The notes beneath the pieces were generated by a model, which was not told the origin of the DNA, made no database searches, and was given only the letters and a program-made list of their open reading frames with translations. Positions 9,372 through 59,804 of a stretch of DNA of 64,000 nucleotides are shown piece after piece. Source of the stretch: Malacoraja senta (lineage: Eukaryota); contig CM075994.1 of assembly GCA_038087875.1 (NCBI GenBank), positions 9,550,001-9,614,000 on the forward strand, read 5' to 3'. Numbering within the stretch: the stretch's first letter is position 1; every line of letters starts with the position of its first letter. The position numbers and the translations under genes are program-made.

Positions 9372-11512
9372 ATGAATTGCCTTGTGGTCCTGGTAGCTGG
9401 TCTCATTCTCAGTGCCTCTCCGGGTAAGGAAATATAACTATTTTGTTGTCCTCTAGTTTAACTGTGGAAAGGCATTTTAGATTCTCAAGTGGGATTGGAA
9501 TTCTTGGTTAAACTTTAAGCTGTGTGTTCGTTCACATGTAGAGAGTTTGTTACTGAATATGGAGTTAGTTATTGTCAAGTCCAGAGTGTTTTATTGTTAT
9601 ATATGTCCCAGATAGAAGGAACGGTGACGTTTCAGGTCGAGACCCTTCCTTCTCTCCAGAGATGCTGCCTGTCCCGCTGAGTTACTCCAGCATTTTATGT
9701 CTATGTTCGGTGTAAACCAGCATCTGCAGTTCCTTGCCACACACACTCACACACGCACACACACATATACACACACACACACACGCACACGCACACGCAC
9801 ACACACACACACGCACACATAATCACACACACACACACACACGCACATATGTACACATAATAGTGCAAAAGGCAAAACTATACGTGTATAGGTAGTTTAG
9901 ATACTACTTTGGCAGTGTGTAGGATACTGCTAGTGTACGGGGTGAACACTGGTCGGCACGGACTCGGTGGGCCGAAGGGCCTGTTTAAATGCTTTAAACA
10001 TCTGAGGGCTCCACATCACTGATGTGTAGGAAGGAACTGCAGATGTTGGTTTACACCGACAATAGACACAAAGTGCTGGAGAAACTCAGCGGGACAGGCA
10101 GCATCTCTGGAGAGAAGGAATAGGTGACGTTTCGGGTCGAGACCCTTCTTCAGACTGAGAGTCAGGGGAAAGGGAAATGAGAGAGATAGATGTTGATATG
10201 GAGAGATATTGAACAAGTGAATGAAAGGTATGCAAAAAAGTAAAGATGACAAAGGAAACAGGCCATTGTTAGCTGTGGGCGAGGTGAGAATGAGTTACAG
10301 ACAATGAGATTCGAGAAGACGACTTTCAAACCAGTAGAACCAGTTGGGATTTGGGAGGGTCTCGACCAAAACATCACCTGTACCTCTTCTCCAGAGCGGC
10401 TGCCTGACCCACTGAGTCACTCCAGCATTTTGTGTCGGTATTGTTCTAAGTTCAATGAAAGGAGTTGCTTGTTCTCAGAGCAGCAGCAGAACGAGCTGCA
10501 GGTGTCTCTCACACAACATCCTCTGTTTTGTTCTCAATGTACAGGTAACTGTTTGCAGTGTTACTCCTGCTTAGGATCAACGGAAAGATGCGTGGATAAT
10601 ACTGTTAACTGCTCTGCGGGGGAGCGATGCTTCCTTGTGGTAGCAGAGGCTGGTAAGTACGAAAGAATTTGAGATGCACACCTCTAGTTTAGAGATACAG
10701 CGTGGAAACATACACACACCAACCTTTGTGTGAGAAGGTTACCCCTCAGATTCCTTTTAAATCTTTTCCCCTCACCTTAAACCAATGTCCTCTGGTCCTC
10801 GATTCCACTACTCTGGGCAAGAGACTCTGTGCATCTACCCAATCTATTCCTCTCATGATTTTATACACCTCTATAGGATCACCCCTCATCCTCCTGCGCT
10901 CCAAGGAATAGAGACCCAGCCTGCTCAACCTCACCCTGTAGCTCACACCCTCTAGTCCTGGCAACATCCTCGTAAAGATGTTAAGACAGTACGATTCTGT
11001 GAATAAATAGCTGATTTACTCATAGAAATGTGAAAACTCAGTGGCATTCACACAAAGAGTGGTGGGTGTATGGAACAAGCTGCCAGAGGAGGTAGTTGAG
11101 GCAGGGACTATCACAACGTTTAAGAAACAGTTAGACAGGTACGTCGATCGGACAGGTTTGGGGGATATGGACCAAGCGCTGACAGGTGGGACTAGTGTAG
11201 CTGGGACATGTTGGCCGGTGTGGGCAAGTTGGGCTGAAGGGCCTGTTTCCACGCTGTAACACTCTAAAATGATACATGAACTATGAATATAGAAATTATT
11301 TATCTGACCATTCTGTTTTTCCAGCTGGTGTAAAGGCTTATGCCGCTGGATGTGCCCCCCCTGCTGAATGTAATGTCCAGCAAATTATCCCAGGAGCCAC
11401 AGTCTCTGTCAGCTGTTGTGATACTGACCTCTGCAACGCGAGCGACCAAGTTAAATTATCTCTTCTGCTGTTCCCTGCTCTGGTCTCAGTCTGGTTTGCA
11501 ATATTTATGTGA
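9372..11512 (+). CDS. Ly6/uPAR (three-finger) GPI-anchored protein, copy 1; join(9372..9423,10545..10652,11325..11512), 115 aa
   Basis: GT-AG phase-1 introns give MNCLVVLVAGLILSASPGNC|LQCYSCLGSTERCVDNTVNCSAGERCFLVVAEAAGVKAYAAGCAPPAECNVQQIIPGATVSVSCCDTDLCNASDQVKLSLLLFPALVSVWFAIFM*. It has a signal peptide, LxCxxC start, 10 Cys in the mature domain, CCxxDxCN end, hydrophobic GPI-type tail and the canonical Ly6 exon layout. Confidence 0.93.
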
Positions 11513-12376
11513 AGCAAGTGCATAATAATAATGCACAGTGCAATCTTCTGGGTGCTTTTTGTCTGAAGATCAGGGATAATGAGTCTTAACACTTGATTTC
11601 CAAAAGATGAGCAACTTAATCTAACAGATGTGCAAATCCTTTTCATTCCAAAATCAGTAACCCTCATCCTGGTTCAGGATTAGTTCATCGATGGTGGTTA
11701 GTTCTATGGGTTCTGTAATTCCTCAATCTTCCAATGTACTTTTGTGTTTGTTATTGATTTGAATTATGTTTTGGAGCTGGTTACATATATATACAGCTTC
11801 AGTAACTCCAACAGAAGGCTGTGGAGGCCAAGTGAATTGATATTTTTACCGCAGAGATAGATAGATTCTTGATTAGGACGGGTGTCAGGGGTTATGCGGA
11901 GAAGGTAGGAGAATGGGGTTAGGAGGGAGAGATAGATCAGCCGTGATTGAATGGCGGAGTAGACTTGATGGGCCGATTGGCCTAGTTCTGCTCCTATCAC
12001 CTACTGCATGACCTTATAACACTGTGTTTATGTCAGGAGGCTAGACAAGCATGTTTTGATGGCAGTGCATGGACAACCTCCTTCAAGTTGACAAAGGCAA
12101 AGCTAATACTTTCAAGAGAGAGCTCCTAAAGATAGCGGAGTCAGGGGATATGGGGAGTAGGCAGGAACAGGGAACTGATTGGGGATGATCAGCCATGATC
12201 ACATTGAATGGCGGTGCTGGTTCGAAGGGCCGAATGTCCTATTCCTGCACCTATTGTCTATTGTCTAATACACCATGCTTGATATTTGCAATCTTTTAAT
12301 AATTCAGATAATAATAATAATAATTATTATATAATTTGGAGTGTACCATTACTCTGTTCATCTGTTGCCGCATCTC

Positions 12377-12382
12377 AATAAA
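12377..12382 (+). terminator. Candidate polyadenylation signal of Ly6 copy 1
   Basis: AATAAA about 870 bp after the stop, in the same context after copy 3 (35597-35602) and copy 4 (60425-60430). Confidence 0.55.
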
Positions 12383-15124: not shown

Positions 15125-16890
15125 TCAGAGGGCTAGTATGAAGATTGTGGGCCGAATGGATTCTTGGGCTGGCAGCTCAGTCACTCAGGCCTGGTGGGCT
15201 GGCAGCTCAGTCATTCAGGACTAGTGGGCTAGCAGCTCAGTCACTCAGGCCTGGTGGGCTGGCAACTCAGTCACTCAGGCCTAGTGGGCTGGCCGCTCAG
15301 TCACTCAGGGCTGGTGGGCTGGCAGCTCAGTCACTCGGGGCTGGTGGGTTTGCAGGTCAGAAACTGCCAGAAATTCTGCCCAAAACAGGTGAGGGATTCT
15401 GTGAGAGAGAAGGGGGAGACGGCGGAGAATCAATTTTAGACATTTTTCATCTTTATTTGCAGATCACAGCAATGAAGGAGGAAATTCAATCCTGGCCTGG
15501 ATCTCACAGATAGCCAATGAAGGGAGGGAGAAAAATACTGGGGTGATGTTTAATACTCGCAGGGGGAATACTTACTGATGGGCCGAAGGAACAGCGCCTG
15601 GGCTAGTACTGGCCTGATGGGCCAAAGGGATTCGATTAAAAAATCTGAGTGACATTTCAGTAGAAAGGCACTTTTTCTGGACTTTTCCATTTCAATTTCA
15701 AGCACAGGGCAGGCCAAACAACTCATTTCATTTTCATTTCATTTTCATTTTCATTTCCATTTCAATTTCAAGCACAGGGCAGGCCAAATAACTAATTTCA
15801 TTTTCATTTCATTTCATTTCCTTTTCCATTTCCATTTCCATTTCAAGCACAGGGCAGGCCAAACAACTCATTTCATTTTCATGCCATTTCCATTTCCATT
15901 TCCATATCCATTTCAATTTCAAGCACAGGGCAGGCCAAACAACTCATTTCATTTTCCTTTCATTTCCATTCCCATTTCAATTTCAAGCACAGGGGAGGCC
16001 AAACAACTCATTTCATTTCCATTTCCATTTCAAGCGCAGGGCAGGCCAAACAACTAATTTCATTTTCATTTAATTTCCATTGCCATTTGCATTTCAATTT
16101 CAAGCACAGGGCAGGCAAACAACTCCTTTCATTTTCATTTCATTTCCATTTCCATTTCAATTTGAAGCACAGGGCAGGCCAAACAACTCATTACATTTTC
16201 CTTTCATTTCCATTTCCTTTTCCATTTCCATTTCCATTTCCATTTCAATTTCAAGCACAGGGCAGGCCAAACAATTCATTTCATTTTCATTTCATTTCCA
16301 ATTCTATTTCCATTTACGTTTCAAGCACAGGTCAGGCCAAACAACTCATTTCATTTTCATTTCATTTCCATTTCCTTTTCAGTTTCAAGCACAGGGCAGG
16401 CCAAACAACTCATTTCATTTTCATTTCCATTTCCATTTTAATTTCAAGCACAGGGGAGGCCAAACAACTCATTTCATTTTCATTAAGGGCTAACAAATCA
16501 TTTATTGCAAGTACATTGGAGACTCACAGTTCAGTAGACTCACAGTTCAGTTGACTCACAGCTTAGAATCGCAGTTGTGGACTCTGCCTCGCGATCTTCC
16601 AGAGTGACTGACCCATGTCCAGCATCCGGGGCTTTATACTGCTGGCCCCCTCGGAAGGGGCGTTACCTTCATCAAGGTGATTGAAATGTGAGAGGACCAA
16701 TCAACTGATCTCAAGATATTTTAAACATTCAAACTTTATTATTTTTCAGCAATCGGAAAAATCCTTGAGGCTGCTGCAGGAGGAGGACTGCGAGGAAGAT
16801 GGTGTTAAAATCATAGCAATACAGGTAGCGTTGTTTCTAAAATCAATTAGCGTAGACAGGAAGTGGTCAAGATGAGACTTTTAGTAAAAT
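15125..16890 (-). mobile_element. Helitron-like element (same 5' motif, reverse orientation) carrying a 30-bp and a (TTTCCA)-rich satellite
   Basis: Right end caagatgagacttttagtaaaata is the reverse complement of the family 5' motif. Contains a 30-bp repeat gggctggcagctcagtcactcaggcctggt (~15165-15350) and a variable satellite tttcaagcacagggcaggccaaacaactcatttcatttt (~15685-16485). Paralogues at ~26635-28355 and, partially, 29385-29745. Confidence 0.6.
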
Positions 16891-23363: not shown

Positions 23364-24908
23364 ATGAATTACCTTGTGGTCCTGGTAGCTGGTCTCATTC
23401 TCAGTGCCTCTCCGGGTAAGGAAATATAACTATTGTTGTTGTCCTCTACTTTAACTGTGGAAAGGCATTTTAGATTCTCAAGTGGGATTGGAATTCTTGG
23501 TTAAACATTAAGCTGTGTGTTCGTTCACATGTAGAGAGTTTGTTACTGAATATGAAGTTAGTTATTGTCAAGTTTTATTGTTATATGTCCCAGATAGAAG
23601 GAATGGTGACATTTCAGGTCGAGACCCTTCCTTCTCTCCAGAGATGCTGCTTGTCCCACTGAGTTACTCCAGCATTTTATGTCTATCTTCGGTGTCAACC
23701 TGTAGTTCCTTGCCACACACACTCACACACGCACACACACGATCACACACACATATGTACACATGAAACAAACAATAATAGTGCAAAAAAGTAAAACTAT
23801 ACGTGTATAGGTAGCTTAGATACTACTTTGGCAGTGTGTAGGATACTGCTAGTGTACGGGGTGATCACTGGTAGGCACGGACTCGGTGGGCCGAAGGGCC
23901 TGTTTAACTTCTGTAAATATCAAGAGGGCTCTACAGCACTGATGTGTAGGAAGGAACTGCAGATGTTGGTTTACACCAAAAATGGACACAAAGTGCTGGA
24001 GTAACTCAGCGGGACTGGCAGCATCTCTGGAGAGAAGGAATAGTTGACGTTTCGGCTCAAGAAACAGGCGCCACAGAACCAGGGGCCACAATTTAAGAAT
24101 AAGGAATAAGGAGTAAGCCATTTAGAACGGAGACGTGAAAACACTTTTTCTCACAGAGAGTGGTGAGTCTGTGGAATTCTCTGCCTCAGAGTGTGGTGGA
24201 GGCCTGTTCTCTGGATGCTTTCAAGAGAGAGCTAGATAGGGCTCTTAAAAATACCGGAGTCATGGGATATGGGGAGGAGGCAGGTACGGGGTACTGATTG
24301 GGGATGATCAGCCATGATCACATTGAATGGCGGTGCTGGCTCAAAGGGCCGAATGGCCTACTCCTGCACCTATTGTCTATGATCTATTGTCTATTGAGAC
24401 CCTTCTTCAGACTGAGAGTCAGGGGAAAGGGAAACGAGAGATATAGACGTTGATATCGAGAGATATTGAACAAATGAATGAAAGATATGCAAGAAGGAAA
24501 AAATGATAAAGGAAACAGGCCATTGTTAGCTGTGGGCGAGGTGAGAATGAGTTACAGTTAATGAGAGTGGAAAAGACGACTTTCAAACCAGAACAACCAG
24601 TTGGGATTTGGGAGGGTCTCGACCAAAACATCACCTACACTCTTCTCCAGAGCGGCTGCCTGACCCGCTGAGTTACTCCAGCATTTTGTGTCGGTATTGT
24701 TCCACGTTTATTGAATGGAGTTGCTCGTTTTCAGAGCAGCAGCAGAACGAGCTGCAGGTGTCTCTCACACAACCTCATCTGTTTTGTTCTCAATGAACAG
24801 GAAAGTGTTTGCGGTGTTACTCCTGCCAAGCATCAACCGAAAGATGCGTGGATAATACTGTGAACTGCTCTGCAGGGGAGCAATGCTAGCTTGTGGTTCC
24901 AGAGGCTG
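23364..24908 (+). pseudogene. Ly6/uPAR copy 2 pseudogene; exon1 23364..23415, exon2 24801..24908, exon 3 deleted
   Basis: MNYLVVLVAGLILSASP-GKCLRCYSCQASTERCVDNTVNCSAGEQC*LVVPEA has an in-frame TAG at 24887-24889. Intron-2 homology stops at ~25105 and resumes at ~25190 in sequence matching ~13607, so ~2.7 kb including exon 3 is missing. Confidence 0.9.
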
Positions 24909-32004: not shown

Positions 32005-32386
32005 ATGAATTACCTTGTGGTCCTGGTAGCTGGTCTCAGTCTCAGTGTCTCTCCGGGTAAGGAAATATAACTATTGTTGTTGTCCTCTAGTTTAACTGTG
32101 GAAAGGCATTTTAGATTCTCAAGTGGGATTGGAATTCTTGGTTAAACATTAAGCTGTGTGTTCGTTCACATGTAGAGAGTTTGTTACTGAATATGGAGTT
32201 AGTTATTGTCAAGTCCAGAGTGTTTTATTGTTATACATCCCAGATAGAAGGAATGGTGACGTTGCACGTCGAGACCCTTCCTTCTCTCCAGAGATTCTGC
32301 CTGTCCCGCTGAGTTACTCCAGCATTTTACGTCTGTCTTCGGTGTAAACCAGCATCTGCAGTTCCTTGCCACAAACACTCAGACAT

Positions 32387-32472
<86 letters not shown>

Positions 32473-32482
32473 TCACACACGA

Positions 32483-32562
<80 letters not shown>

Positions 32563-34724
32563 TCACACACGATCACACACACACACACACACACACGCAC
32601 ATATGTACACATGAAACAAACAATAATAGTGCAAGAAAGCCAAAACTATACATGTATAGGTAGTTTAGATACTACTTCGGCAGTGTGTAGGATAGTGCTA
32701 GTGTACAGGGTGATCACTGGTTGGCGCGTACTCAGTGGGCTGAAGGGCCTGTTTAATAGCTTTAAACATCAGAGGGCTCTACAGCACTGATGTGTAGGAA
32801 GGAACTGCAGATGTTGATTTACACCGACATAGAAACATAGAAAATAGGTGCAGGAGTAGGCCATTCGGCCCGTCGATATGATCATGGCTGATCATCCAAC
32901 TCAGTATCCCATCCCTGCCTTCTCTCCATACCCCCTGATCCCTTTAGCCACAAGGGCCACATCTAAATCCCTCTTAAATATAGCCAATAGACACAAAGTG
33001 CTGGAGTAACTCAGCGGGAAGGCAACATCTCTGGAGAGAAGATATACTTGACGTTTCGGCTCCAGATCCAGGGGCCACAGAACCAGGGGCCACAGAACCA
33101 GGGGCCACAGTTTAAGAAAAAGGAATAAGGAGTAAGCCATTTAGAACGGAGACGAGGAAACACTTTTTCTCACAGAGAGTGGTGAGTCTGTGGAATTCTC
33201 TGCCTCAGAGGGCGGTGGAGGCCAGTTGTCTGGATGCTTTCAAGAGAGAGCTAGATAGGGCTCTTAAAAATAGCGGAGTCAGGGGATATGGGGAGAAGGC
33301 ATGAACGGGGTACTGATTGGGGATGATCAGCCATGATCACATTGAATGGCGGTGCTGGCTCGAAGGGCCAAATGGCTGACTCCTGCACCTATTGTCTACT
33401 GTCTATTGTCTATTGAGACCCTTCTTCAGACTGAGAGTCAGGGGAAAGGAAACAAGGGAAATAGACGGTGATATCGAGAGATATTGAACAAATGAATGAA
33501 AGATATGCAAGAAGGAAAAGACTCGAGAAGACCACTTTTAAACCAGTACAACCAGTTGGGATTTGGGAGGGTCTCGACCAAAACATCACCTGTATCTCTT
33601 CTCCAGAGCGGCTGCCTGACCCGCTGAGTTACTCCAGCATTTTGTGTCGGTATTGTTCTATGTTCATTGAAAGGAGTTGCTCGTTTTCAGAGCAGCGGCA
33701 GAACGAGCTGCAGGTGTCTCTCACACAAAATCCTCTGTTTTGTTCTCAATGTACAGGTAACTGTTTGCAGTGTTACTCCTGCTTAGGATCAACGGAAAGA
33801 TGCGTGGATAATACTGTTAACTGCTCTGCGGGGGAGCGATGCTACCTAGTGGTAGCAGAGGCTGGTAAGTATGAATGAATTTGAGATGCACACCTCTAGT
33901 TTAGAGATACAGCTTGTTCCATACACCCACCACCCTTTGTGTGAAAAGGTTACCCCTCAGATTCCTATTAAATCTTTTCCCCCTCACCTTAATCCTATGT
34001 CCTCTGGTCCTCGATTCCACTACTCTGGGCAAGAGACTCTGTGCATCTACCCAATCTATTCCTCTCATGATTTTATACACCTCTATAGGATCACTCCTCA
34101 TCCTCCTGCGCTCCAAGGAATAGAGACCCAGCCTGCTCAACCTCTCCCTCTAGCTCACACCCTCTAGTCCTGGCAACATCCTCGTAAAGATGGTAAGACT
34201 GTACGATTCTGTGAATAAATAGCTGATTTACTCATAGAAATGTGAAAACTCAGTGGCATTCACACAAAGGGTGGTGGGTGTATGGAACAAGCTGCCAGAG
34301 GAGGTGGTTGAGGCAGGGACTATCGCAACGTTTAAGAAACAGTTAGACAGGTACATGGATCGGACAGGTTTGGGGGATATGGACCAAGCGCTGGCAGGTG
34401 GGACTAGTGTAGCTGGGACATGTTGGCCAGTGTGGGCAAGTTGGGCTGAAGGGCCTGTATCCACGCTGTATCACTCTAAAATGATACATGAACTATGAAT
34501 ATAGCAATTATTTATCTGACCATTCTGTTTTTCCAGCTGGTGCAAAGGGTTACAGCGCTGGATGTTTTCCCCCTGCTGAATGTGATGTCCAGCAAAATAT
34601 CCCAGGAGCCACAGTCTCTATCAGCTGTTGTGATACTGACCTCTGCAACGCGAGTGACCAAGTTAAATTATCTCTTCTGCTGTTCCCTGCTCTGGTCTCA
34701 GTCTGGTTTGCAATATTTATGTGA
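32005..34724 (+). CDS. Ly6/uPAR (three-finger) GPI-anchored protein, copy 3; join(32005..32056,33757..33864,34537..34724), 115 aa
   Basis: MNYLVVLVAGLSLSVSPGNC|LQCYSCLGSTERCVDNTVNCSAGERCYLVVAEAAGAKGYSAGCFPPAECDVQQNIPGATVSISCCDTDLCNASDQVKLSLLLFPALVSVWFAIFM*; all splice sites GT-AG, 10 Cys, intact frame. Confidence 0.92.
32387..32600. repeat. (CA)n microsatellite in Ly6 intron 1
   Basis: Long CA run. Equivalent runs at ~9738-9845, ~23715-23750 and ~56416-56615 differ in length. Confidence 0.95.
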
Positions 34725-37404
34725 AGCAAGTGCAGAATAATAATGCACAGTGCAATCTTCTGGGTGGTTTTTGTCTGAAGATCAGGGATAATGGGTCTTA
34801 ACACTTGATTTCCAAGAGATGAGCAACTTAATCTAACAGATGTGCAAATCCTTTTCATTCCAAAATCAGTAACCCTCATCCAGGTTCAGGATTAGTTCAT
34901 CAATGGTGGTTAGTTCTATGGGTTCTGTAATTCCTCAATCTTCCAATGTACTTTTTTGTTTGTTATTGATTTGAATTATGTTTTGGAGCTGGTTACATAT
35001 ATATACAGCTTCAGTAACTCCAACAGAAGGCTGTGGAGGCCAAGTGAATTGATATTTTTACCGCAGAGATAGATAGATTCTTGATTAGGGCGGGTGTCAG
35101 AGTTTATGGGGAAGGCAGGAGAATGGGGTTAGGAGGGAGAGATAGATCAGCCATGATTGAGTGGCGGAGTAGACTTGATGGGCCGAATGGCCTAGTTCTG
35201 CTCCTATCACCTACTGCATGACCTTATAACACCGTGTTTGTCTCAGGAGGCTAGACAAGCATGTTATGATGGGCAGCGCATGGACAACCTCCTTCAAGTT
35301 GACGAAGGCAATGCCAATACTTTCAAGAGAGAGCTAGATAGGGCTCCTAAAGATAGCGGAGTCAGGGGATATGGGGAGAAGGCAGGAACGGGGTACTGAT
35401 TGGCGGTGATCAGCCATGATCACATTGAATGTCGGTGCTGGTTCGAAGGGCCGAATGGCCTACTCCTGCACCTATTGTCTATTGTCTAATACACCATGCT
35501 TGATACTTGCAATCTTTTAATAATTTGGATAATAATAATAATAATCATATATTTTGGAGTGTGTACCATGACTCTGTTCATCTGTTGCCGCATCTCAATA
35601 AAATACAGATTATCAAAAGAAAACGTGACCGTATTCCTTTTTTTATGTTCCATGAGCAGGATTAAGCCATTCGGCCCATCAAGTTTACTCTGCCCTTCAA
35701 TCCTGGCCGATCTATCTTTCCCTCTCAACCCCATTCTCCCCATAACCCCTGACACTTGTACTAATGAAGAATCTGTCAAAGCCTCTATCAAATTCTGGAA
35801 AACAATTTTATAAACTGCCTCACGTTATAATTACTGCACTGTATAATTCCGCGGCACGGTGGTGCAGCGGTAGAGTTGATGCCCCGCGGCGCCAGAGACC
35901 CGGGTTCCATCCTGACCACGGGTGTGACCACGGGTGTCCGGCGCTGCAAGCGCTGTAAGGCAGCATCTCTGCCGCTGCGCCACCCTGCCGCCCATTGCAC
36001 TTCCGTGTCCGTCTCTTCATTTTGGCTCCGTAGCAAACTGCTGTGAGGAAAAGCCTAGAGCAGAGTTGGTGATAGACCCTCAGCAACTTTTAACAGCGGT
36101 CCCTATTATTGCCACGTTTAAGAAAGAATGGAAATGCTGGAAAAATCGAAGGTAGACAAAAATGCTGGAGAAACTCAGCGGGTGAGGCAGCATTTATGGA
36201 GCGAAGGAAATAGGTGACGCATTAACCAACCTGATCTCCCGGTGGCCCAGCACTTCAACTCCCCCTCCCATTCCCAATCTGACCTTTCTGTCCTGGGCCT
36301 CCTCCATGGCCAGAGTGAGTCCCACCGCAAATTGGAGGAGCAGCACCTCATATTTCGCTTGGGTAGTTTACACCCCAGCGGTATGAACATTGACTTCTCC
36401 AATTTCAGGTAGTCCTTGCTTTCTCCCTCCTTCCCAGCTCTCCCACAGCACACTCTCCGCCTCTTCCTTTCTTCTTCCCCTCCCCACCCCCCACCCCACC
36501 CCCACATCAGTCTGAAGGGTCTCAACCCGAAACGTCACGTATTCCTTCGCTCTAGATGCTGCCTCACACGCTGAGTCTCTCCAGCATTTTTGTCTAACTT
36601 CCTTATCTCTGTCTCATCTCCCCTGACTCTCAGTCTGAAGAAGGGTCTCGATCCGTTCCTTCTCTCCAGAGATGCTGCCTGTCCCGCTGAGTTTCTCCAG
36701 CATTTTTATCTACCTTCTATCATTGCCACTTTCATTTCACTGTACATCTTGTATGTGTATGTGACAAATAAACTTGACTTATCCGTCGGGACAGAATGTG
36801 CAAACTGAAACTCGTGGTCACTTCAATCAAGCATTTATTCAGAAATACACATTAGTAACAATCCCACAACCGATTAGAGAAGTTCTTTTTAAAAAAAACA
36901 AGGGCAGCTTTTTACCAAGTCAACTTCCTTTATAGAATACGTACAATACAGTTCATGACCTTAACTTACCTGAAGGGAAAGGGCAGGTGAAAGGAACCAA
37001 AATATTCTTCATTCCGAGCAGGGTGGTGGAATAAATGAGTCACGTCTGGCCAATGCTATAGGATTCTCAATGTCGTTGCTAAATGGTCGGGATCTCTTCG
37101 ACATTGGTAGCAACTCTCTCACATGTACGGATTGTAGAGAGAAAATAAAGATGGGGGGGAAACGGCAGTGGGAAGTTGGGACAACCGAGTGTAGATGTCG
37201 TTCACCCTTTCAACTGGTTCATCACTTTGGGTCTTTGGTACCAATCCGTTGTCAAAACGAAATGGCGGTTCAATGGTACGTCGCTGGCCTGTCGTTCAGA
37301 AGCCCGCTGACGTGATACTCTTCACCCTAAACCGCTGCCTACACTGCGGGACTGGAAACCAGACTTCTGACAACACCGGGATGGGCTGATCCCATCCAAC
37401 GGAC

Positions 37405-37730
37405 GCAGAGTGCTGGAGAAACTCAGCGGGTCAGGCAGCATCTGTGGAGAACATGGATAGGTGACGTTTCACAGAGTGCTGGAGTAACTCAGCGGGTCAG
37501 GCAGCATCTGTGGAGAACATGAATAGGTGACGTTTCACAGAGTGCTGGAGTAACTCAGCGGGTCAGGCAGCATCTGTGGAGAACATGGATAGGTGACGTT
37601 TCACAGAGTGCTGGAGTAACTCAGCGGGTCAGGCAGCATCTGTGGAGAACATGGATAGGTGACGTTTCAGAGTGCTGGAGTAACTCAGCGGGTCAGGCAG
37701 CATCTGTGGAGAACGTGGGTAGATGACGTT
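37405..37730. repeat. 64/66-bp tandem repeat of a short Penelope-associated element
   Basis: Unit cagagtgctggagtaactcagcgggtcaggcagcatctgtggagaacatggataggtgacgtttca, ~5 copies here and ~6 copies at ~62222-62610. Confidence 0.9.
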
Positions 37731-38572
37731 TCGGGTCGGGAACTTTCTTCAAGGGTCCCGACCCGAGCTGGCACCCATCTATGTTCTCCAGAGATGCTGC
37801 CTGACAACCCCGTTACTCCAGCACTCTGTGTCTTTCTTTGGTGTAAACCAGCACCTGCAGTTCCTTCGTTATTACACCTTGCAGGCCTGCGACTGCCCTC
37901 AAATCCTCGAGACGGAGACAGAGAGCGCCATGGGTGACCGGGACTCAGATAAAGAACTCGCAGAAGTGAACAGGGTTGAACAGAGAATAATCCACCTTAG
38001 ACAAGACACAAAATGCTGGAGTAAACTCAGCGGCTCAGGCAGCATCTCTGGAGAGAGGGGACTTTTGTGTCTGAAGAAGGGCCTCGACCCGACACGTCGC
38101 CCGTTCCCTCTCCAGAGATGCCGCCTGTCCCGCTGAGTTACTCCAGCATTTTGAGCCTATCGATGGTGTAAACCAACATCTGCAGTTCCTTCCCAAGACA
38201 GATAATTCACCCTGGCATGTCTTCACAAACACACACACACAAGCGGTTCATTTTTGTGTTGATGAAACGTTTTAAAGTTTGTTTTTGTTCCCCCACTAAA
38301 AAGAAATCCATTGCACCAACTTCAGTTCACGACTGTGAATGGGGACAGGGGAGTGGAAGCGGCAATAACAGAATAATGTGGTTTTGGAGGGGGTGGGGAG
38401 GGGGGGTTAGGAGGGAGAGAGGGGAGGAGAAGGCAAAGAGTTTCTTTTGTTAAAGTGAACACTGTTTACAGCCTCGTGGCATATCATCTGTCTGCGGGCC
38501 CGCTGTTAAACAGACATCTTTTCTTGAGGAGTTGCCCGGGTCTCGCTCTCTCTCTCGCTCTCTATTCTTTCT

Positions 38573-38662
38573 CTAACGGATAGTCTTGACTGGGCTTTTG
38601 AAGTTGCTGGCAGCTTGGAGCTGGAGTTGGTAGGCATGGGGTGTATCTTGAAGCCGTAGAGT
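38573..38662 (-). pseudogene. CSNK2B: Duplicated, frameshifted last coding exon of CSNK2B (with duplicated 3'UTR, ~36815-38572)
   Basis: A polypyrimidine tract and AG precede a reading of LYGFKIHPM, then a 1-bp deletion at ~38635 (ATGGCC>ATGCC); the exon is 90 nt against 91 nt in the intact copy. I saw no other CSNK2B exon between 38.7 and 56 kb. Confidence 0.88.
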
Positions 38663-38744
38663 CTGGAGAGAAGGGGGGTAAAAGGGGGAAAGAGATGGAG
38701 AGAGTTAACGGCGATGGAGCGGAGGGACAGGAGCGAGAAGGTGG

Positions 38745-39025
38745 AGGAGGCAGAGACCCGGCTTCGATCCCGACTACGGGCGCTGTCTGTACGGAGTTTG
38801 CGCGTTCTACCCGTGACCCGCGTGGGTTTTCTCCGGGAGCTCCGGTTTCCACCTGCACTCCTTAAACGCACTGGGTTTGTAGACTAATTGGCTTCGGTAA
38901 AAGTTGTAAATCCCACACACCCTAGTGTGTGTAGGATAATGTTAAGTATGCGGGAATCGCTGGTCAGTGCAGACTCGGTGGGCCGAAGGGCCTGTTTCCA
39001 TGCTGTATCTCTAATCTAAACTAAC
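38745..39025 (+). mobile_element. HE1-like V-SINE
   Basis: V-domain plus CR1-like 3' end (gggccgaagggcctgtttcc...gtatctcta). Other copies at ~12632-12830, 40080-40300, 41190-41475, 48655-48830(-) and 63635-63915. Confidence 0.8.
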
Positions 39026-42000
39026 TTAAGCTTCCTATCTGAAGATACGTGATCTCCTGGTTGCTCAGCACTTTAACTCCCCCTCCCATTCCCACACTGA
39101 CCTTTGTCTGGGCCTCCTCCACTGTCAGAGTGAGGCCAAACATAAATTGGAGGAACAGCACCTGATATTTCGCTTGGGCAGCTTACACCCCAGCGGTATA
39201 AGTGTTGATCTCGCTATGTTTAAGTAACCCATGCATCCACCAGCTTTTGTGTTTATCTTCGGTTTAAACCAGCATCCCAGGATGAGTGGGTTACATATGA
39301 TGAGCGTTTGACGGCACTGGGCCTGTACTCGCTGGAGTTTAGAATGATGAGGGGGGGGGGGGGGGACCTCATTGAAACTTGCCAAAAAGTGAAAGGCCTG
39401 GATAGCGTGGATGTGGAGAGGAATTTCCTTCAGTCCCAGAGGGTGGTGAATCTGTGGAATTCTTTGCCACAGACAGGCTGAGGAGGCCAAGTCAGTGGAT
39501 ATGTTGAAGGCAGAGACAGATTCTCGATTCATACGGGTGTCAGGGGTTATGGAGAGAAGGCAGGAGAATGGGGGTTGAGAGGAGAGATAGCTCAGCCAGG
39601 ATTGAATGGCGGAGTAGACTTGATGGGCCAAATGGCCTAATTCTGCTCTTATCACTTTATGATCTGCAGTAGCTCCCTAAACTTCCTCTCCAGCGGCCAT
39701 GTAACACTTCCTGCACACGACATGCGGTTTTGTTCCTCAATCTGCTTCTGACATCTGTACCAAGCGTTCAACGCCCAAACCTGGCGACTCTCTGCCTGCT
39801 GTTACCAGAAGTGGATTTGCAATCATGCATTCCGATCACTTCACCCTTTAAAACCATTAATCCATCAGCAGCATTTCTGACTTCATCTTGCACTGAATGT
39901 CATCAGGAAATAGGAGTAGAATTAGGCCATTCGGCCCATCCAGTCCACCCCGCCATTCAATCATGGCTGATCGATCTCTCCCTCCTCCCCCATTCTCCCG
40001 CCTTCTCCCCATAACCTCCGACACCCGCACTCATCAAGAATCTATCTCCCTCTGCCTTAAAAACGTTACTCCCCTTAACGGCACGGTGATGCCGCGCCAG
40101 AGCTTGCTGACAGACAGCACCAGAGGCCCGGGTTCGATCCTGACCGCGGGCGCTGTCTGTACGGAGTTTGCACGTTTCTCCCCGTGAGTTTTCTCCGGGA
40201 GCTCGGTTCCTCCTACACTCGAATGACGTACGGGTTTGTAGGTTATTTGGCTTGGATTAATTGGAAATTGTCCCTTGTGTGCGTAGGATAGTGTTGGTGG
40301 GTGCATTCAGAAACAAAACTCTGACATAGGCCACCAAAGCATATTACATAAGTCAATTCAGTAACATGCATCTCTGCATTCAGTTTGAGTTGGTTTGGCG
40401 AACTCTAAAGCAATGAAAAAAAGACACAAAAAATGCTGGAGTACCTCAGCAGGTCAGGCGGCATCTCTGGAGAACATGTATAGGGGACGTTTCGGGTCGG
40501 GACCTTTCCTCCGTTCTTTCTGGCGGAGTTAAGCACTTTCTAGGGACGTGAAGGGCAGGACTGGCCAAGTTTTGGTGTGTGGGATTGTTACAATAGACAA
40601 CAGGTGCAGGAGGAGGCCATTCGGCCCTTCGAGCCAGCATTCCCTGTTATCATAGCTGATCACCCCCAATCAGTACCCCGTTCCTGCCTTCTCCCCATAT
40701 CCCCTGACTCCGCTATCTTTAAGAGCCCTATCTAGTTCTCTCTTGAAAGTATCCGGAGAACCGGCCTCCACCACCCTCTGAGGCAGAGAATTCCACAGAC
40801 TCACCACTCTCTGTGAGAAAAAGTGTTTCCTCGTCTCCTTTCTAAATGGCTTACCCCTTATTCTTAAACTGTGGCCCTGGTTCTGGACTCCCTGCCTCTA
40901 GCGTGTCCAAACCCTTAATAATCTTATATGTTTCAATAAGATACCCTTTCATCCTTCTAAATTCAGGTTCCAGTTTACAGCACGTAAATCCAATTAAGAG
41001 TCCGATTCCAATTTGAGGTCTGAAGACACACAACGTCACCCATTACAGAGATGCTGCCTGCCCCGCTGAGTTACGCCAGCATTTTGTGCCTATAATCCAA
41101 TTAAGATGGCGGGGCAACTACAACCTTTCCAACCAATACTACTTTCTTAGGCAAGGGTGTTATGAGTTAGCATAACATGACAGTGAGGCCCGGCGGCGCT
41201 CGGTAGAGTCACTGCCGTTCGGCGCCGGAGACCTGGGTTCGATCCCGACTACGGGCGCTGTCTGTGCGGAGTTTGTACATTCTCCCCGTGACCGTGTGAT
41301 CGTTCTCCGGGTGCTCCGGTTTCCTCCCACACTCCAAAAGACGGACAGGCTGGTGGTATAATTGGCTTCGGTAAAATTTGTAAACTGTCCCTAGTGTGTA
41401 GGATAGTGCTATAGTGTACGGGGTGATCGCTGGTCGGTATGGACTCAGCTGTTTCCACGCTGCATCTCTAAAGTAAATTAAACAATTTCTCCAGAGATTG
41501 AAGAAGCATTCAGACAGATACATGGATAGGGTAGATTTGGAGGGATTGTTAGCCACAAGCAGGCAGGTGGGATTAGTGTAGATGCAGGCATGATATTCAC
41601 CTCCAGAAAAAAAGTAGGAAGTAATGGCCGGGAGTCCAGGAGGCCGGTTAGGTCCCTCCCCAGTGGGGGTTCAGGGGGCTCCTGCATTTTTAATAAATTG
41701 AAAGTGATTCGCAAGCTTTCTACTGGTAGTTTACATAACAGAAGCTTAGACTTTTTCCTAACACATAACCAGTAAAATAACCCCCAAAAGATAAATATTT
41801 CATAAAATAAATGACTTCATACAGCTAAAAAAAATCTTTACAAAAAATGCTACCTGAAATGTCCCTTTGCCTACCTAGCACTGTGTGCAAACAGCACAGA
41901 AACACTGATGTTGGCTGCAGCCATCTTCTGCTTCAGTAAAGGAAGCTGGTCGGCGATTGGCCGCAACGCCCCTCGGAGAGTGGTCGCCGAGTGACCGGCG

Positions 42001-44817: not shown

Positions 44818-46423
44818 TACACACCTCATTGACACTTTTGGAATAATGAATGGAGTGGATGTGGAGAGGAAGTTTCCGCTAGGGGGAGAGTCTCGGCCTA
44901 GAGGGCACAGTCTCAGAATAAAAGGAGGTACCTTTAACCTACAGGGGGCGCCGTCGAGTATGGCTGCCCTGCCAGCAGCTGTTAGTCTTTTCACCTTTTT
45001 TTATTTCCAGTTAGTTAAAAGTGTTTGTTTTGGAGGTCTTTTAGTCTTTTTATGTGGGGGGGGGGAAGGGGGAAACTATTTTTCTCAGTACCTACGTGGT
45101 CGGAGATGCGGCTTTTCTCAGAGCCGTGTTTTCGCCCTTTCCTCACGTCCTACCGGCAGTCTGGAGCGGCGTTTCCTGCCGGGACCGGCCAGGACTTCAG
45201 CTTCAGCGGCGGCACAGCGCTGAGGCACCATCATGGAGTGGGCGATGCCTTACCCGGGTCGCCGTGCAGTAAGCTCCGGAGTGCTGTGACCGCCGGCTCC
45301 AACATCGCGGTCTGTGGTCAGCGGTCTGTGGAGCTTCCAGCCGCGGGCAACGCTGAGCTTTAAACACCGCGGAGCCTGGGATCTCACGACGAGGTCGCCA
45401 GAGTCGGAGCATCGACCAGCGTGGCTCATGGACTTCGGGAGCCGCGGTCTCCTGGGAGGAAGCGGCCGCTCCAGACACTCCGGGCCGCTGAGAGTGTTCA
45501 CCCGACGCCAGAACTACATCAACCGGCGAGAGGGCCTGAAGCATCGGGCTGCCGTATCGGCGACTGCAGAGGCTTCAATAGGCTTCGACTATGGGTGAAC
45601 TGGGGATGGGACTGGACTTTTGCGGCCTTCCCCCACAGTTGTGGGGGGGTGTTTTTATGTTTACTATTAAATTCTTGGATGTTGTGCCTTATCTTTATCT
45701 GTGTGCTGCCATGGCAAGTCAAATTTCACTACACCAATTGGTGTATGTGATAATAAATGTCCTTTCTCCTTAAAAAGGAGACGGAGGAGGAATTTCTTTA
45801 CCGTACCTCAGCAGACGTAACAATACACTAAACGTGCGCAAAAGTATAAAATGCCCACTTGTTTCACTTTTTCACACAGAGAGTTGTGAGTCTGTGCAAT
45901 TCTCTGCCTCAGATGGCGGTGGAGGCCGGTTGTCTGGATACTTTCAAGAGAGAGCTAGATAGGGCTCTTAAAGATAGCGGAGTCAGGGGATATGGGGAGA
46001 AGGCAGGAACGGGGTACTGATAGGGGATGATCAGCCATGATCAAATTGAATGGCGGTGCTGGCTCGAATGGCCGAATGGCCTCCTCCTACACCTATTGTC
46101 TATTGTGTTCGGGTTCAGCACGCAATCTCTCAAAAACATACCCAAGTATTAGAATGCAGTCACGTTTATCGCTACTCATTTGGAAGTCAGAATGTAGTCT
46201 GGACAAAACAAAGGCATTCGCAAGATGGTGGCGAGGGATATTTATAAAAGAAACACTATTCAAATTTATTACCGAAACTCAACAATGGAATCGTGCAAGG
46301 CAATGTGGGTTATGGAATCAAGTGACAGTATGGGGTTTGTCCGGGTGCTCCAGTTTCTTTGCACAATCCAAAGACACACAATGGTCAAATTGTAAAAAAA
46401 TGTACATTGTTTTGCCGAGGTTA

Positions 46424-51004: not shown

Positions 51005-51087
51005 TAATCTTATATGTTTCAATAAGATACCCTCTCATCCTTCTAAATTCCAGTGTATACAAGCCCAGTCACTCCATTCTTTCAACA

Positions 51088-54000: not shown

Positions 54001-54893
54001 TTCTGCCAAATCTGGTCCCACATTTACAAAGAATTTGTTAAAACCATTAACTGCATCATCCATATTATTCATTGTCTTGTGTTCCTCAATAAAATACTCA
54101 GGGTAGCCTGTATTTTTTGATCCATTTCTAATAATACTATTTAGCACGTTCCATAAACCTTTCATATTATTTTTATTATTCTCTAACATTTTATTATAGT
54201 ATTCTTTCTTACATATCCTCATAATAGTGGTTAATTTATTCTTATATTTTTTATATTTATTTTCTGCTTCAGTAGTTCGATATTTTATGAATTGTCTATA
54301 TAGTGTGTTTTTTCTTTTTGCATGCATTTTTTTAAACCCTTAGTGATCCATGGACTATTTGTCTGTTTTTGTCTATCACTATATTGTTTCACAGGACAGT
54401 TTTTGTCATAAAGTGATTTAAAAATATTTAGAAATCCATTGTATGCTTTGTCGACATCTTCACCCTCATATACTACCCTCCAATTCTGTTTCAGTAATTC
54501 ATTCTTAAATGCATTTATGTTTTCTTCGGTTCTCACCCTTTTATATTTGAAATGACTGGTGTTCTTAGGTTTCCTATAACTACAGTGATAAACAATAAAA
54601 ACAGGTAAATGGTCACTGATGTCACTGTATAATAGTCCGCTTACTGTATTGCTTTCCATAATGTTTGTGAATATGTTGTCTATTAATGTGGCACAATGAG
54701 AAGTAATTCTACTAGGTCTGGTTATTCTAGGATATAAACCCATACTGTACATAGTATTGATGAATTCTTCTGTCATTTTATGCTTTTTTGGATTCAACAG
54801 GTCAATATTGTAATCCCCACAGATGAACATAATCTTTTGTAATGATTTTGTAATATTTTCCATCCAATCTTTAAATATTTCAATACTGGAGCT
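51088..54893 (-). mobile_element. AT-rich CR1-group (L2/Crack-like) LINE, APE + RT, interrupted by CR1
   Basis: ICGDYNIDLL, TLIDNIF, ISDHLPVF (APE); NYRPVSLL, FIDFKRAFDTVNH, LFADDTNIF (RT); (TTTATTTAT)n tail at ~51088-51190; several stops and frameshifts. Confidence 0.85.
53037..53838 (-). mobile_element. CR1 LINE 3' fragment nested in the preceding LINE
   Basis: IHFGGKNGKADYYLNG...RPHLEYCVQFWSP...KAGTGY, nearly identical to 42852-43655. Confidence 0.93.
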
Positions 54894-55240
54894 CTGTATA
54901 AGGCCATACTGGGAAAATGTTAATGCAGTTGTAAAAAATATCTTGGGTTATAAAATCCCAAATACCTGCTCTGTGATGTATCTGGGGCATATTAAAGATT
55001 TTGTAAAAAATAGAAGATACATATTTGATTAAAGTTTTGCTTGCAGCAAGTAAGAAGGCCATTACCAGACAGTGGCTTAATGAAAAAAGTCCAAAACAGG
55101 AACAGTGGTTAGAAATTGTGCGAGACATCTTTAATATGGAAAAATTGACATATTCCTTGAGAGTCAAGGAGAATTCATTTGAGAAGATCTGGGAAAAATG
55201 GACCGTTTATTTGAGCCACGACACCAATTAGATAAATGCC
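54894..55240 (+). mobile_element. L1-clade LINE ORF2 C-terminal fragment
   Basis: IRPYWENVNAVVKNILG and LLAASKKAITRQWL...W...MEKLTY...FEKIWEKW resemble the fish L1 ORF2 C-terminus. Confidence 0.7.
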
Positions 55241-56106: not shown

Positions 56107-56425
56107 ATGAATTGCCTTGTGGTCCTGGTAGCTGGTCTCATTCTCAGTGCCTCTCCGGGTAAGGAAATATAACTATTTTGTTGTCCTCCAGTTTAACTGT
56201 GGAAAGGCATTTTAGATTCTCAAGTGGGATTAAGCTGTGTGTTCGTTCACATGTAGAGAGTTTGTTACTGAATATGGAGTTAGTTATTGTCAAGTCAAGA
56301 GTGTTTTATTGTTATATGTCCCAGATAGAAGGAATGGTGACATTTCAGGTCGAGACCCTTCCTTCTCTCCAGAGATGCTGCCTGTCCCGCTGAGTTGCTC
56401 CAGAATGTTATGTCTACACACACAC

Positions 56426-56511
<86 letters not shown>

Positions 56512-56523
56512 ACACACACACAA

Positions 56524-56599
<76 letters not shown>

Positions 56600-59500
56600 A
56601 CACACACACACACATATGTACACATGAAACAAACAATAATAGTGCACAAAGGCAAAACTATACGTGTATAGGTAGTTTAGATACTACTTTGGCAGTGTGT
56701 AGGATAGTGTTAGTGTACGGGGTGATCACTGGTCCGCGCGGGCTCGGTCGGCCGAATGGCCTGTTTACATGCTGTAAACATCAGAGGGCTCTTCAGCACT
56801 GAGGTGTAGGAAGGAACTGCAGATGTTGGTTTACACCAAAAATGGACACAAAGTGCTTGAGTAACTCAGCGGGACAGGCAGCATCTCTGGAGAGAAGGAA
56901 TGGATGATGTTTCGGGTCGAGGCCCTTCTTCAGACTGAGGGTCAGGCGAAAGAGAAGCGAGAGAGATAGACAGTGATATCGAGAGATATTCAACAAATGA
57001 ATGAAAGATATGCAAAAAGGAAAAGATGATGAAGGAAACAGACCATTGGTAGCTGTGGGCGCGGTGAGAACGAGTTACAGACAATGAGACTCGAGAAGAC
57101 GTCTTTCAAACCAGTACGGTAGACAAAATTGCTGGAGAAACACAGCGTGTAAGTCAGCATCTATGGAGCCATGGAAATAGGCAACGTTTCTGGCCGAAAC
57201 CCTTCTTCAGACTGGTTCTTCAAACCAGTACAACCAGCTGGGATTTGGGAGGGTCTCGAACAAAACATCACCTGTACCACTTCTCCAGAGCGGTTGCCTG
57301 ACCCGCTGAGTTTTTTTTGTGTCGGTATTGTTCTATGTTTAGTGAAAGGAGTTGTTCGTTCTCAGAGCAGCGCAGAACGAGCTGCAGGTGTCTCTCACAC
57401 AACCTCCTCTGTTTTGTTCTCAATGTACAGGTAACTGTTTGCAGTGTTACTACTGCTTAATATCCAATGAAAGATGCGTGGATAATACTGTTAACTGCTC
57501 TGCGGGGGAGCAATGTTACCTTGGGGTTGCAGAGGCTGGTAAGTACGAACCAATTTGAGATGCATACCTCTAGTTTAGAGATACAGATTCAAAGAAACAT
57601 AGAAACATAGAAAATAGGTGCAGGAGTAGGCCATTCGGCCCTTCGAGCCTGCACTGCCATTCAATATGATCATGGCTGATCATCCAACTCAGTATCCTGT
57701 ACCTGCCTTCTCTCCATACCCCCTGATCCCTTTAGCCACAAGGGCCACATCTAACTCCCTCTTAAATATAGCCAATTGAACTGGCCTCAACTCCCTTCTG
57801 TGGCAGAGAATTCCAGAGATTCACCACTCTCTGTGTGAAAAATGTTTTTCTCATCTCGGTCCTAAAGGATTTCCCCTTTATCCTTAAACTGTGACCCCTT
57901 GTCCTGGACTTCCCCAACATCGGAACAATCTTCCTGCATCTACCCTGTCCAACCCTTAAGAATTTTGTAAGTTTCTATAAGATCCCCCCTCAATCTTCTA
58001 AATTCTACCGAGTACAAGCCGAGTCTATCCAGTCTTTCTTAATATGAAAGTCCTGACATCCCAGGAATCAGTCTGGTGAACCTTCTCTGTACTCCCTCTA
58101 TGGCAAGAATGTCTTTCCTCAGATTAGGAGACCAAAACTGTACGCAATACTCCAGGCGTGGTCTCACCAAGACCCTGTACAACTGCAGTAGAACCTCCCT
58201 GCTCCTGTACTCAAATCCTTTTGCTATGAATGCTAACATACCATTCGCATTCTTCCTATTACATCTTTTGCCCTTCACCTTAAACCTATGTCCTCTGGTC
58301 CTCGATTCCCCCTACTCTGGGCAGGAGGCTCTGTGCGTCTATCCAATCTATTCCTCTCATGATTTTATACACCTCTATAAGATTAACCCTCATCCTCCTG
58401 TGCCCTCTCTGTGCCTCTGTGTCCCACTGTGTGCCTCCGTGTCCCTCTCTGTGCCACTGTGTCCCTCTATGTGCCCCTGTGTCCCTCTCTGTGCTTCTGT
58501 GTCCCTCTCTGTGCTTCTGTGTCCCTCTCTGTGCCCTGTGTCCCTCTCTGTGCCCCTGTGTCCCTCTCTTACTTCTGTGTCCCTCTCTTGCTTCTGTATC
58601 CCTCTCTTGCTTCTGTGTCCCTCTCTCTCTGCCCCCCTATCTCTCTAGCCGCGCCTGCAAGTTGGGGGCTATACATGAGTGGATAGGGCGGGGGATGGAG
58701 TAAAAGTAGTGGATGAATAATATTAATATAATTTCAATGGGGGATGTTAGTGTGTGGGGGGGGGGCTGATTGGTTAGTGTGTGTGTGTGTGGGGTGTATA
58801 GTGTGTGTGTGGGGGGTGGTTATTGTGTGTGTGTGTGTGGGGGGGTGGTTAGTGTGTGTGTGTGGGGGTGGTTAGTGTGTGTGTGTGGGGGTGGTTAGTG
58901 TGTGTGGGGGTGTATAGTGTGTGTGGGGGGTGTATAGTGTGTGTATGGGGGGGTGGTTACTGTGTGTGTGTGGGTTGTAGTTAGTGTGTAGGGGGTGGTT
59001 ACTGTGTGTGGGAGGTTGGTTAGTGTGTGTGTGGGGGGTGTATAGTGTGTGTGTGGGGAGTGGTTACTGTGTGTGTGTGGGGGTGGTTAGTGTGTGTGTG
59101 GTGGGGTGGTTAATGTGTGTGGGGGATGGTTAGTGTGTGTGTGGGGGATGGTCAGTGTGTGTGTGTGGGGGGTGGTTAGTGTGTGTGTGCGGGGTGGGTA
59201 GTGTGTGTGTGGGGGTGGTTAGTGTGTGTGTGGGGGGTGGTTAGTGTGTGTGTGCGGGGTGGGTAGTGTGTGTGGGGGGTGGTGGTTAGTGTGTGTGTGT
59301 GGGGGGGTGGTTAGTGTGTGTGTGGGGGGTGGGTAGTGTGTGCGTGGGGGGTGGTTAGTGTGTGTGTGGGGGGTGGTTAGTGTGTGTGGGGGGGTGGGTA
59401 GTGTGTGCGTGGGGGGTGGTTAGTGTGTGTGTGGGGGGTGGTTAGTGTGTGTGTGCGGGGTGGGTAGTGTGTGTGTGGGGGGGGGGGGTTAGTCTGTGTG

Positions 59501-59804
59501 TGACACCGCAACCACACGTAGAGGGGATGAGACCCAACGGGTCCCACTTGGTCTAGTGAACTATAAACACAGAAATTATTTAACTATCCATTCTGTTTTT
59601 CCAGGAGGTTTTACGGTTTACGAAGCTGGATGTGTTCCCTCTACTGCTTGTAATATCCAGCAAACTATTGATGGTGTCACATTCTCTATCCACTGTTCTC
59701 TACCCTCATCCAGGTTCAGGATTAGTTCATCGATGGTGGTTAGTTCTATGGGTTCTGTAATTCCTCAATCTTCCAATGTACTTTTTTCTTTGTTATTGAT
59801 TTGA
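56107..59804 (+). CDS. Ly6/uPAR copy 4 with truncated LU domain and novel C-terminus (possible pseudogene); join(56107..56158,57431..57538,59605..59804), 119 aa
   Basis: MNCLVVLVAGLILSASPGNC|LQCYYCLISNERCVDNTVNCSAGEQCYLGVAEAGGFTVYEAGCVPSTACNIQQTIDGVTFSIHCSLPSSRFRISSSMVVSSMGSVIPQSSNVLFSLLLI*. Splice sites are intact; a deletion after 59697 removes Cys9, Cys10 and the GPI tail. Confidence 0.75.
57590..58255 (-). mobile_element. CR1 LINE 3' fragment in intron 2 of Ly6 copy 4
   Basis: NANGMLAFIAKGFEYRSREVLLQLY...; (agaaacat)n tail; absent from intron 2 of copies 1-3. Confidence 0.9.
58400..59556 (+). mobile_element. Helitron-like 3' part with CT-rich and GT-rich minisatellites in intron 2 of Ly6 copy 4
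   Basis: Ends gagacccaacgggtcccacttggtCTAG|tgaactat; the paralogous empty site in copy 1 is a|tgaactat (~11276), an A|T target. Confidence 0.7.

Follow-up and report, generated by a model that had tools for sequence, protein, structure and literature searches.

The best described relatives of the genes analysed here belong to the Ly6/uPAR family, and in the accessible portion of the literature the hallmark of this family is a ten-cysteine pattern with the motifs LxCxxC and CCxxxxCN, while its typical gene has three exons, with the signal peptide in the first and the GPI signal in the third (PMC4839075). For the snake three-finger toxins (3FTx), positive selection has been reported (PMC2474615, PMC10421932, as far as their accessible text goes), and for the salamander Plethodontid modulating factor (PMF), the available part of PMC8904931 argues for purifying selection on the UTRs. 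In tandem gene clusters in general, a peak of divergence at selected sites is expected under gene conversion, and the pseudogenes of a cluster can act as donors (PMC3924837, accessible part). The window studied here, i.e., the whole 64,000-nucleotide stretch of Malacoraja senta DNA that was analysed, belongs to a tandem array, in skates, of three-exon, single-LU-domain Ly6/uPAR genes with a predicted GPI anchor. We find that diversifying selection has most likely acted on the mature domain at the level of the family, though on grounds other than those of the original prediction, which had placed it in exon 3.

Self-comparison and exon searches identified four copies of one three-exon Ly6/uPAR gene in the window, all on the + strand, copies 1 and 3 being intact and copies 2 and 4 broken. 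Exon 1 of copy 1 (9372..9423) runs from an ATG start to a GT donor in phase 1 and translates into a signal peptide. Exon 2 (10545..10652), bounded by AG and GT, encodes finger I and the rising strand of finger II and gives weak Pfam matches to CD59 and UPAR_LY6, the CD59 scores of single exons lying under the cut-off. The coding part of exon 3 (11325..11512) consists of a variable stretch (11325-11413) followed by the CCxxxxCN motif, the GPI signal and the stop codon, and the 3′UTR (11513..12382) probably ends at the only AATAAA (12377). Copy 3 (32005..34724) has its exons at 32005-32056, 33757-33864 and 34537-34724. Copy 2 (23364..24908) is a pseudogene with exon 1 at 23364-23415 and exon 2 at 24801-24908; it is interrupted by a stop at codon 47 and lacks exon 3, and its homology to copy 1 ceases near 25105. 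A scan of the window revealed no other Ly6 exon, and an intact CC..CN motif in copies 1 and 3 only; long open reading frames elsewhere in the window are transposon-like only, and the window contains a 200-N gap.

Copies 1 and 3 each encode a product of 115 amino acids, with a signal peptide, a ten-cysteine LU domain and a hydrophobic C-terminal tail from which a GPI anchor is predicted. Their cysteines follow LU spacing (C23, 26, 33, 40, 46, 63, 69, 84, 85 and 90, plus N91), the LxCxxC and CCxxxxCN motifs are present at the start and the end of the domain, and the AG/GT boundaries fit the layout of signal peptide, first half of the LU domain, and second half with the GPI signal. A search with exon 3 retrieved 18 proteins from 57 candidates, all from skates (Leucoraja, Amblyraja and Rhinoraja) and named PSCA-like or CD59-like, and three more proteins from Amblyraja, together with a weak teleost match, came from a profile search (22 of 1497 candidates in all). 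The strongest non-skate matches among 10 proteins looked up are from elephant shark and bamboo shark, and the nearest of these bear the automatic name 'SPACA4-like'. We note that RefSeq already predicts the skate relatives under the generic labels 'PSCA-like' or 'CD59-like'; orthology of the skate genes to PSCA or CD59 is not shown. The structural model of the closest relative, Leucoraja P0001, which is not the window's own protein, has a mean pLDDT of 66.9 (65-85 over residues 21-90), and a Foldseek search with it finds GPIHBP1 as the best match (E 9e-5), PSCA at rank 15, and other LU domains too. The three-finger fold is hence predicted from this Leucoraja model rather than from a model of the window protein.

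According to the original prediction, amino acid changes between the copies are concentrated in exon 3 while the flanks remain nearly identical. Its description of copies 1 and 3 is accurate in several respects. Exon 3 does map to fingers II and III and differs by exactly the seven residues named, at codons 56, 58, 60, 64, 70, 74 and 82, all upstream of CC; the two purely synonymous codons are 59 and 93; exon 2 differs by a single residue, F47Y (plus one silent change); and the GPI tails are identical. Exon 1, however, carries three residue differences that were unmentioned (C3Y, I12S and A15V), and the flanks described as nearly identical are 4.5-4.7% divergent, the 3′UTR over 11513-11800 differing at 7/288 positions. 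The excess in exon 3 over its flanks is real: 11/89 bases differ ahead of CC, compared with 2/108 for exon 2 (p=0.004) and 1/99 for the remainder of exon 3 (p=0.002). The predicted contrast with non-coding DNA (99/2099) stands when bases are counted (Fisher p=0.004) but weakens to p=0.10 when the differences are counted as seven mutational events, because two of the clusters each consist of three consecutive bases. In a scan of the 2.4-kb alignment, the probability of any 89-base window with at least 11 differences is 0.31, and one non-coding window near 12303 has 12. Inflation of the background rate by repeat-derived intron was also considered and ruled out (unique 64/1439, repeat 47/1031).

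Codon models give a similar picture. The Nei-Gojobori estimates for exon 3 of copies 1 and 3 are dN 0.149 and dS 0.091 (p=0.43), and under GY94 the pre-CC stretch has an omega of 1.97 (p=0.38), which becomes 1.57 upon addition of copy 4 (p=0.37). The estimates for this stretch range from 0.98 to 1.97, despite the invariant residues within it, whereas omega in exon 2 among the window copies is 0.35-0.37 and that of the whole LU domain in copies 1, 3 and 4 is 0.97. None of nine codon-model fits yields a dN/dS significantly above 1 (omega 0.35-1.97; the smallest p, 0.06, belongs to an omega below 1), and the tests for dN/dS above 1 in exon 3 give p values of 0.28-0.97. Positive selection on exon 3 of this pair is therefore not established.

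DNA from other sequencing runs was compared over 11262-11800 in 4 of 22 listed runs. In four contigs (three from run X1 and one from run X4), the intron end and the CC/tail region match, whereas the 72-95 bases in between do not at 80% likeness. Pieces from the UTR differ from copy 1 by about 1-4% (2/169, 12/285, 13/336 and 11/366), and the divergence of pieces covering the pre-CC stretch reaches 14-16% (29/176, 20/139, 13/96 and 18/125). Among 40 of the 73 variant rows, 18 are pre-CC, 2 are at codon 86, none falls within 11424-11512 and 20 are in the UTR; non-synonymous changes make up 15 of the 18 pre-CC rows (ratio 1.75, p=0.28). Several runs have the letters of copy 3 at codons 59-60 and 64, which are therefore shared, older motifs, and in other runs the silent codon-59 change goes together with the change at codon 60. 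Two 30-letter loose ends of run X16, compared with copy 1 by eye, have some 17 non-synonymous and 5 synonymous differences, with silent divergence raised as well. One low-depth contig of the same run shows a spliced molecule in a relative, in which the end of exon 2 is joined to 11324 (27/30 letters alike, by eye); X16 is RNA only by guess, and X15 was flagged as probably DNA.

Copy 4 is a broken mosaic, in which an older exon 3 is joined to a recent, copy-3-like 3′ block. Its first two exons (56107-56158 and 57431-57538, within 56107..57538) are like those of copies 1 and 3. The end of its intron 2 (59532..59604) consists of a repeat-derived motif, which has 6 occurrences in the window and recurs at the corresponding position in two run X4 contigs, and of 48 bases homologous to the acceptor region of copy 1; these differ from copy 1 at 6/48 and from copy 3 at 7/48 positions, while copies 1 and 3 mutually show 1 difference. 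The truncated exon 3 (59605..59697) belongs to the older lineage and stops after the first Cys of CC. A four-base filler (59698..59701) then stands in place of 242 bp of copy 1 (11418-11659), and the match resumes at 11660, such that the copy is without C85, C90, N91, the CN motif, the GPI tail, the stop and the proximal 3′UTR. The 3′ block that follows (59702..63997) shows 26/1036 differences to copy 3 and 58/1036 to copy 1, and is about 98% identical to the distal 3′UTR and downstream block of copy 3 (34872..39108).

The two halves of the copy 4 domain have different relatives. In exon 2, copy 4 most resembles copies 3 and 1 (30/35 and 29/35 identical residues); its exon 3 is closest to Leucoraja P0018 and Rhinoraja P0011 (17/30) as against 14/30 to copies 1 and 3, and groups with P0018 at a support of 97/90. 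AU tests reject neither a single exon-3 clade of copies 1, 3 and 4 (p=0.064) nor, for exon 2, a grouping of P0018 and copy 4 (p=0.41). The original prediction had contrasted the divergent exon 3 of copy 4 with its close 3′UTR. Both peptides it compared are correct and the stretch is indeed divergent, but the 3′UTR in question begins at the rearrangement junction and, copy 4 being a mosaic across this junction, is no clock for its exon 3. Use of this 3′UTR as a rate yardstick is likewise rejected by the synonymous differences (7/24 versus 58/1036, p=0.0004). With respect to copy 1, exon 3 has dN 0.384 and dS 0.380, which is the matching synonymous divergence of a distant paralogue, of an older lineage, that had been named beforehand as the observation that would count against selection.

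The junction, and with it the duplication of the 3′ blocks of copies 3 and 4, could also be an error of assembly in which two haplotypes were joined. Its appeal lies in the near-identity of the blocks over 4.2 kb, beginning at the junction, in the 200-N gap in the window, and in a junction known from the assembly alone. The four-base filler, the copy-4-type intron end in run X4, and an X1 contig with a different deletion of the same region, from 11381 to 11597 across CC and the tail, all speak against such an error, which we regard as very unlikely and which would touch copy 4 only.

At the level of the family, the variability extends over the whole LU domain. The relatives are predicted proteins, compared at protein level over 31-36 alignment columns per exon. 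Distances were calculated over 23 full-length paralogues including copies 1 and 3 (copies 2 and 4, P0020, P0023, P0024 and P0025 being excluded), and trees were built without the isoform P0020 and the frameshifted P0025; the teleost P0026 was set aside as well. The mean amino acid p-distance is 0.157 in the signal peptide, 0.452 in the exon-2 part of the LU domain, 0.478 in the pre-CC part of exon 3, 0.070 in CC..CN and 0.039 in the tail, where 19/24 positions are invariant, and the boundary of variability falls within exon 3, at CC. Up to 10 residue types occur per site, and yet all ten cysteines are kept in 22/23 paralogues; the mean entropies of fingers I, II and III are 1.25, 1.36 and 1.51 bits. 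An LU tree rooted on two shark-side proteins separates a Rhinoraja clade (89/79) from a clade of Rajidae and the window copies (95/86), and both have the same conserved flanks and variable LU domain. Within Rhinoraja the distances are 0.34-0.42 in the LU domain, 0.025 in the signal peptide and 0.009 in the tail. Site entropies are correlated between the two clades (rho 0.44, p=0.0006, 58 sites), although coinciding variable sites are also expected from purifying selection on the remaining sites. The seven sites that distinguish copies 1 and 3 are hypervariable across the family, with a mean entropy of 2.30 in the 21 other paralogues, versus 1.43 for random non-Cys sites of exon 3 (p=0.0002).

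These data bear directly on the reading in which exon 3 alone, i.e., fingers II and III, gained selected point mutations after a recent duplication of copies 1, 3 and 4. The most variable sites do lean towards exon 3, to which 15/25 and 8/13 of the top ones are assigned (as read from a ranked list), with positions 60, 64, 68, 76, 74, 58, 82, 71 and 70 near the top. Also in its favor are the non-synonymous differences of the copy 1/3 pair relative to non-coding DNA (9/67 versus 99/2099, p=0.005), and A60 and I74 of copy 1, which are found in none of the 23 aligned relatives. However, exon 2 is not conserved but equally variable in the family, both residues at 5/7 of the sites that separate copies 1 and 3 are found in other skate genera, and copy 4, with its older truncated exon 3, contradicts a recent origin. 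We consider this account improbable: the concentration in exon 3 holds for the copy 1/3 pair but not for the family, and the pair shows the contrast because it has a recent common exon 2 but different, mostly pre-existing, exon-3 motifs. In a modeled strand register, positions 47, 56, 58 and 60 would share one face of the hairpin of finger II (mean entropy 1.68 versus 1.16, 8 versus 6 sites), and 70 and 74 would lie on the opposite side of finger III from 82.

The exons of the family appear to have partly separate histories. Separate trees for exon 2 and exon 3 give a better fit than random splits of columns do (0/60 permutations, in 4/4 sets); this permutation was used instead of AU tests of each exon's best tree against the tree of the other exon, which are biased to the own tree. 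Between exon 1 with its adjacent intron and the mid-intron, divergence of copies 1 and 4 changes from 1/198 to 39/397 (p=2e-6), and pseudogene copy 2 has the near-identical exon-1 block too. Across the four copies, the 23 informative DNA sites are not significantly clustered (14 runs versus 14.6 expected, p=0.48). Likeness of the flanks could alternatively reflect strong purifying selection on the signal peptide, the GPI signal, the exon-1 region and the UTR, with the LU domain evolving at an ordinary or relaxed rate. This would agree with the tail difference of only 0.058 between Rajidae and Rhinoraja and with the lack of variant rows in 11424-11512 noted above. Residues 5, 16 and 17 of the signal peptide and 101 of the tail, however, are clade-specific, being fixed in 9/9 Rhinoraja sequences and absent from 14/14 others, which fits homogenisation or separate expansion and not stasis, and the exon-1 block is near-identical even in a pseudogene. 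There is accordingly little chance, in our estimate, that constraint on the flanks is the explanation.

An account without positive selection deserves more weight, although we still think it unlikely. Old paralogues with relaxed surface loops would have had their flanks homogenised by conversion that stops at diverged sequence, and would have acquired segments, among them the exon 3 of copy 4 and the motifs of copy 3, from older copies. The equality of dN and dS in copy 4, the whole-LU omega of 0.97, the breakage of two of the four window copies, the changes in copy 4 at the well-conserved positions 67 and 80, and the linkage of the silent codon-59 change to that at codon 60 are all compatible with such neutral exchange. 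It accounts poorly for a variable stretch that begins past the signal peptide and halts exactly at CC in two separately expanded clades, and for sites with so many residue types among intact cysteines.

We hypothesize, with a probability of roughly 0.6, that the LU domain as a whole is held divergent by diversifying selection while its flanks are homogenised, and that exons are shuffled and genes decay alongside. Through unequal crossing-over and gene conversion, exon 1, the part of exon 3 from CC to the stop, and the proximal 3′UTR would stay alike, and exons and motifs would also be shuffled between copies, with broken copies such as 2 and 4 left behind. Codons 19-83, comprising the three fingers and both exons, would be shielded from this homogenisation by selection for different ligand-binding surfaces, and would thereby form a peak of divergence with both dN and dS raised. 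A joint rise of dN and dS, bounded by the signal peptide on one side and, inside one exon, by CC on the other, is the outcome to be expected where selection prevents conversion from evening out a functional surface (PMC3924837). The diversifying selection originally proposed is thus likely at the level of the family; it is not specific to exon 3, and dN/dS is not significantly above 1 in the window. A further and rather doubtful extension is that the array is a germline-diversified recognition repertoire (its members serving as pathogen receptors, as decoys or as markers of self and non-self) that underwent separate expansions in two families of skates, with its surfaces renewed by exchange of exons and motifs and with old or broken copies, such as copy 4, as donors. 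By analogy with mammalian Ly6 genes, one may guess at an immune or pathogen-facing partner.

The hypervariable skate Ly6 array is real and apparently undescribed, as we found no description of it or of its variability in the literature covered (mostly non-subscription papers, without supplements). The evolutionary pattern itself is already well known from snake toxins and salamander pheromones. With GPI-anchored single-LU genes such as PSCA, CD59, GPIHBP1 and the mouse Ly6 cluster, the array has in common three exons, ten cysteines, the motifs and tandem clustering (PMC4839075, accessible part), and differs in that its close relatives are found in skates only, and then in elephant shark and bamboo shark. 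In the available text of 10.1101/354688 and PMC4839075, the genes for Bouncer and human SPACA4 consist of a single exon, whereas the skate genes have three coding exons. As described in the accessible parts of PMC2474615 and PMC10421932, snake three-finger toxins share the fold, the exon layout and mature exons that are more different than introns, and their ASSET process resembles the skate array in segment exchange, orphan exons and pseudogenes within the cluster. The toxins, however, are secreted and have lost the anchor (PMC10421932, in part), while the tail is preserved in skate copies 1 and 3 as well as in 21 relatives; the intact skate copies also retain the finger-I disulfide, unlike the toxins, with no sign of venom use. 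Salamander PMF likewise has many paralogues, a hypervariable three-finger coding region and conserved UTRs, but it is a secreted pheromone at about 30% identity (PMC8904931, available part), as compared to GPI-tailed skate proteins that are about 55-65% identical in the LU domain. Opsin, MHC and R-gene clusters, in the portion of PMC3924837 accessible, resemble the array in that divergence rises locally, between flanks that are homogenised, at sites presumed to be under selection, and in pseudogenes as possible donors. Confirmation of selection at the level of sites would point to a ligand arms race in skates, and would place the array beside the radiations of mouse Ly6 genes, snake toxins and salamander pheromones on the same fold, as their membrane-anchored equivalent in cartilaginous fish.

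In copy 4, the reading frame (window 59605-59805) continues past the junction with the copy-3-like 3' block into UTR-derived sequence and reaches a stop after 119 codons; a short hydrophobic stretch forms the C-terminus of the predicted product. Because the two cysteines missing from copy 4 pair with each other, this product retains four disulfide pairs. A deletion that also spans the CC motif and the GPI tail, but differs from that of copy 4, was observed at 11381-11597 (copy 1 coordinates) in run X1, a sequencing run of another sample. Judging from the sequences, the CC/GPI-tail region is repeatedly lost. Among the Amblyraja RefSeq models P0023, P0024 and P0025, two keep the LU domain and end ahead of the hydrophobic tail, and these tail-less models may represent secreted forms; one of the three has a frameshift in exon 3.

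At the N-terminal side of the LxCxxC motif, copies 1-4 all have an additional cysteine at codon 20. Of the 23 full-length skate paralogues, 13 carry it and the others have S, A or T at this position. The cysteine is possibly a free thiol close to the signal cleavage site. Exon 1 and its adjoining upstream and intron sequence (window 9119-9600 and the three homologous segments) diverge by only ~1-2% across all four copies, including pseudogene copy 2, whereas mid-intron 1 diverges by 7-12%. From sequence comparison, this block would be either a recent conversion tract or a conserved regulatory block.

The assembly is locally uncertain around a 200-N gap (window 29185-29384), on either side of which a ~900-bp segment is repeated with ~95% identity (16533-17428, 27998-28895 and 29385-30282). 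Long ORFs at 30093-31439, 43395-45000 and 51612-54947 are, judged by their motifs, presumably remnants of LINE reverse transcriptase and endonuclease.

P0180, a more distant Leucoraja Ly6 protein named 'SPACA4-like', has no separate gene in the 64-kb window. It and P0001, the closest relative, are listed on contigs of equal size (302464), which hints at a larger Ly6 cluster.
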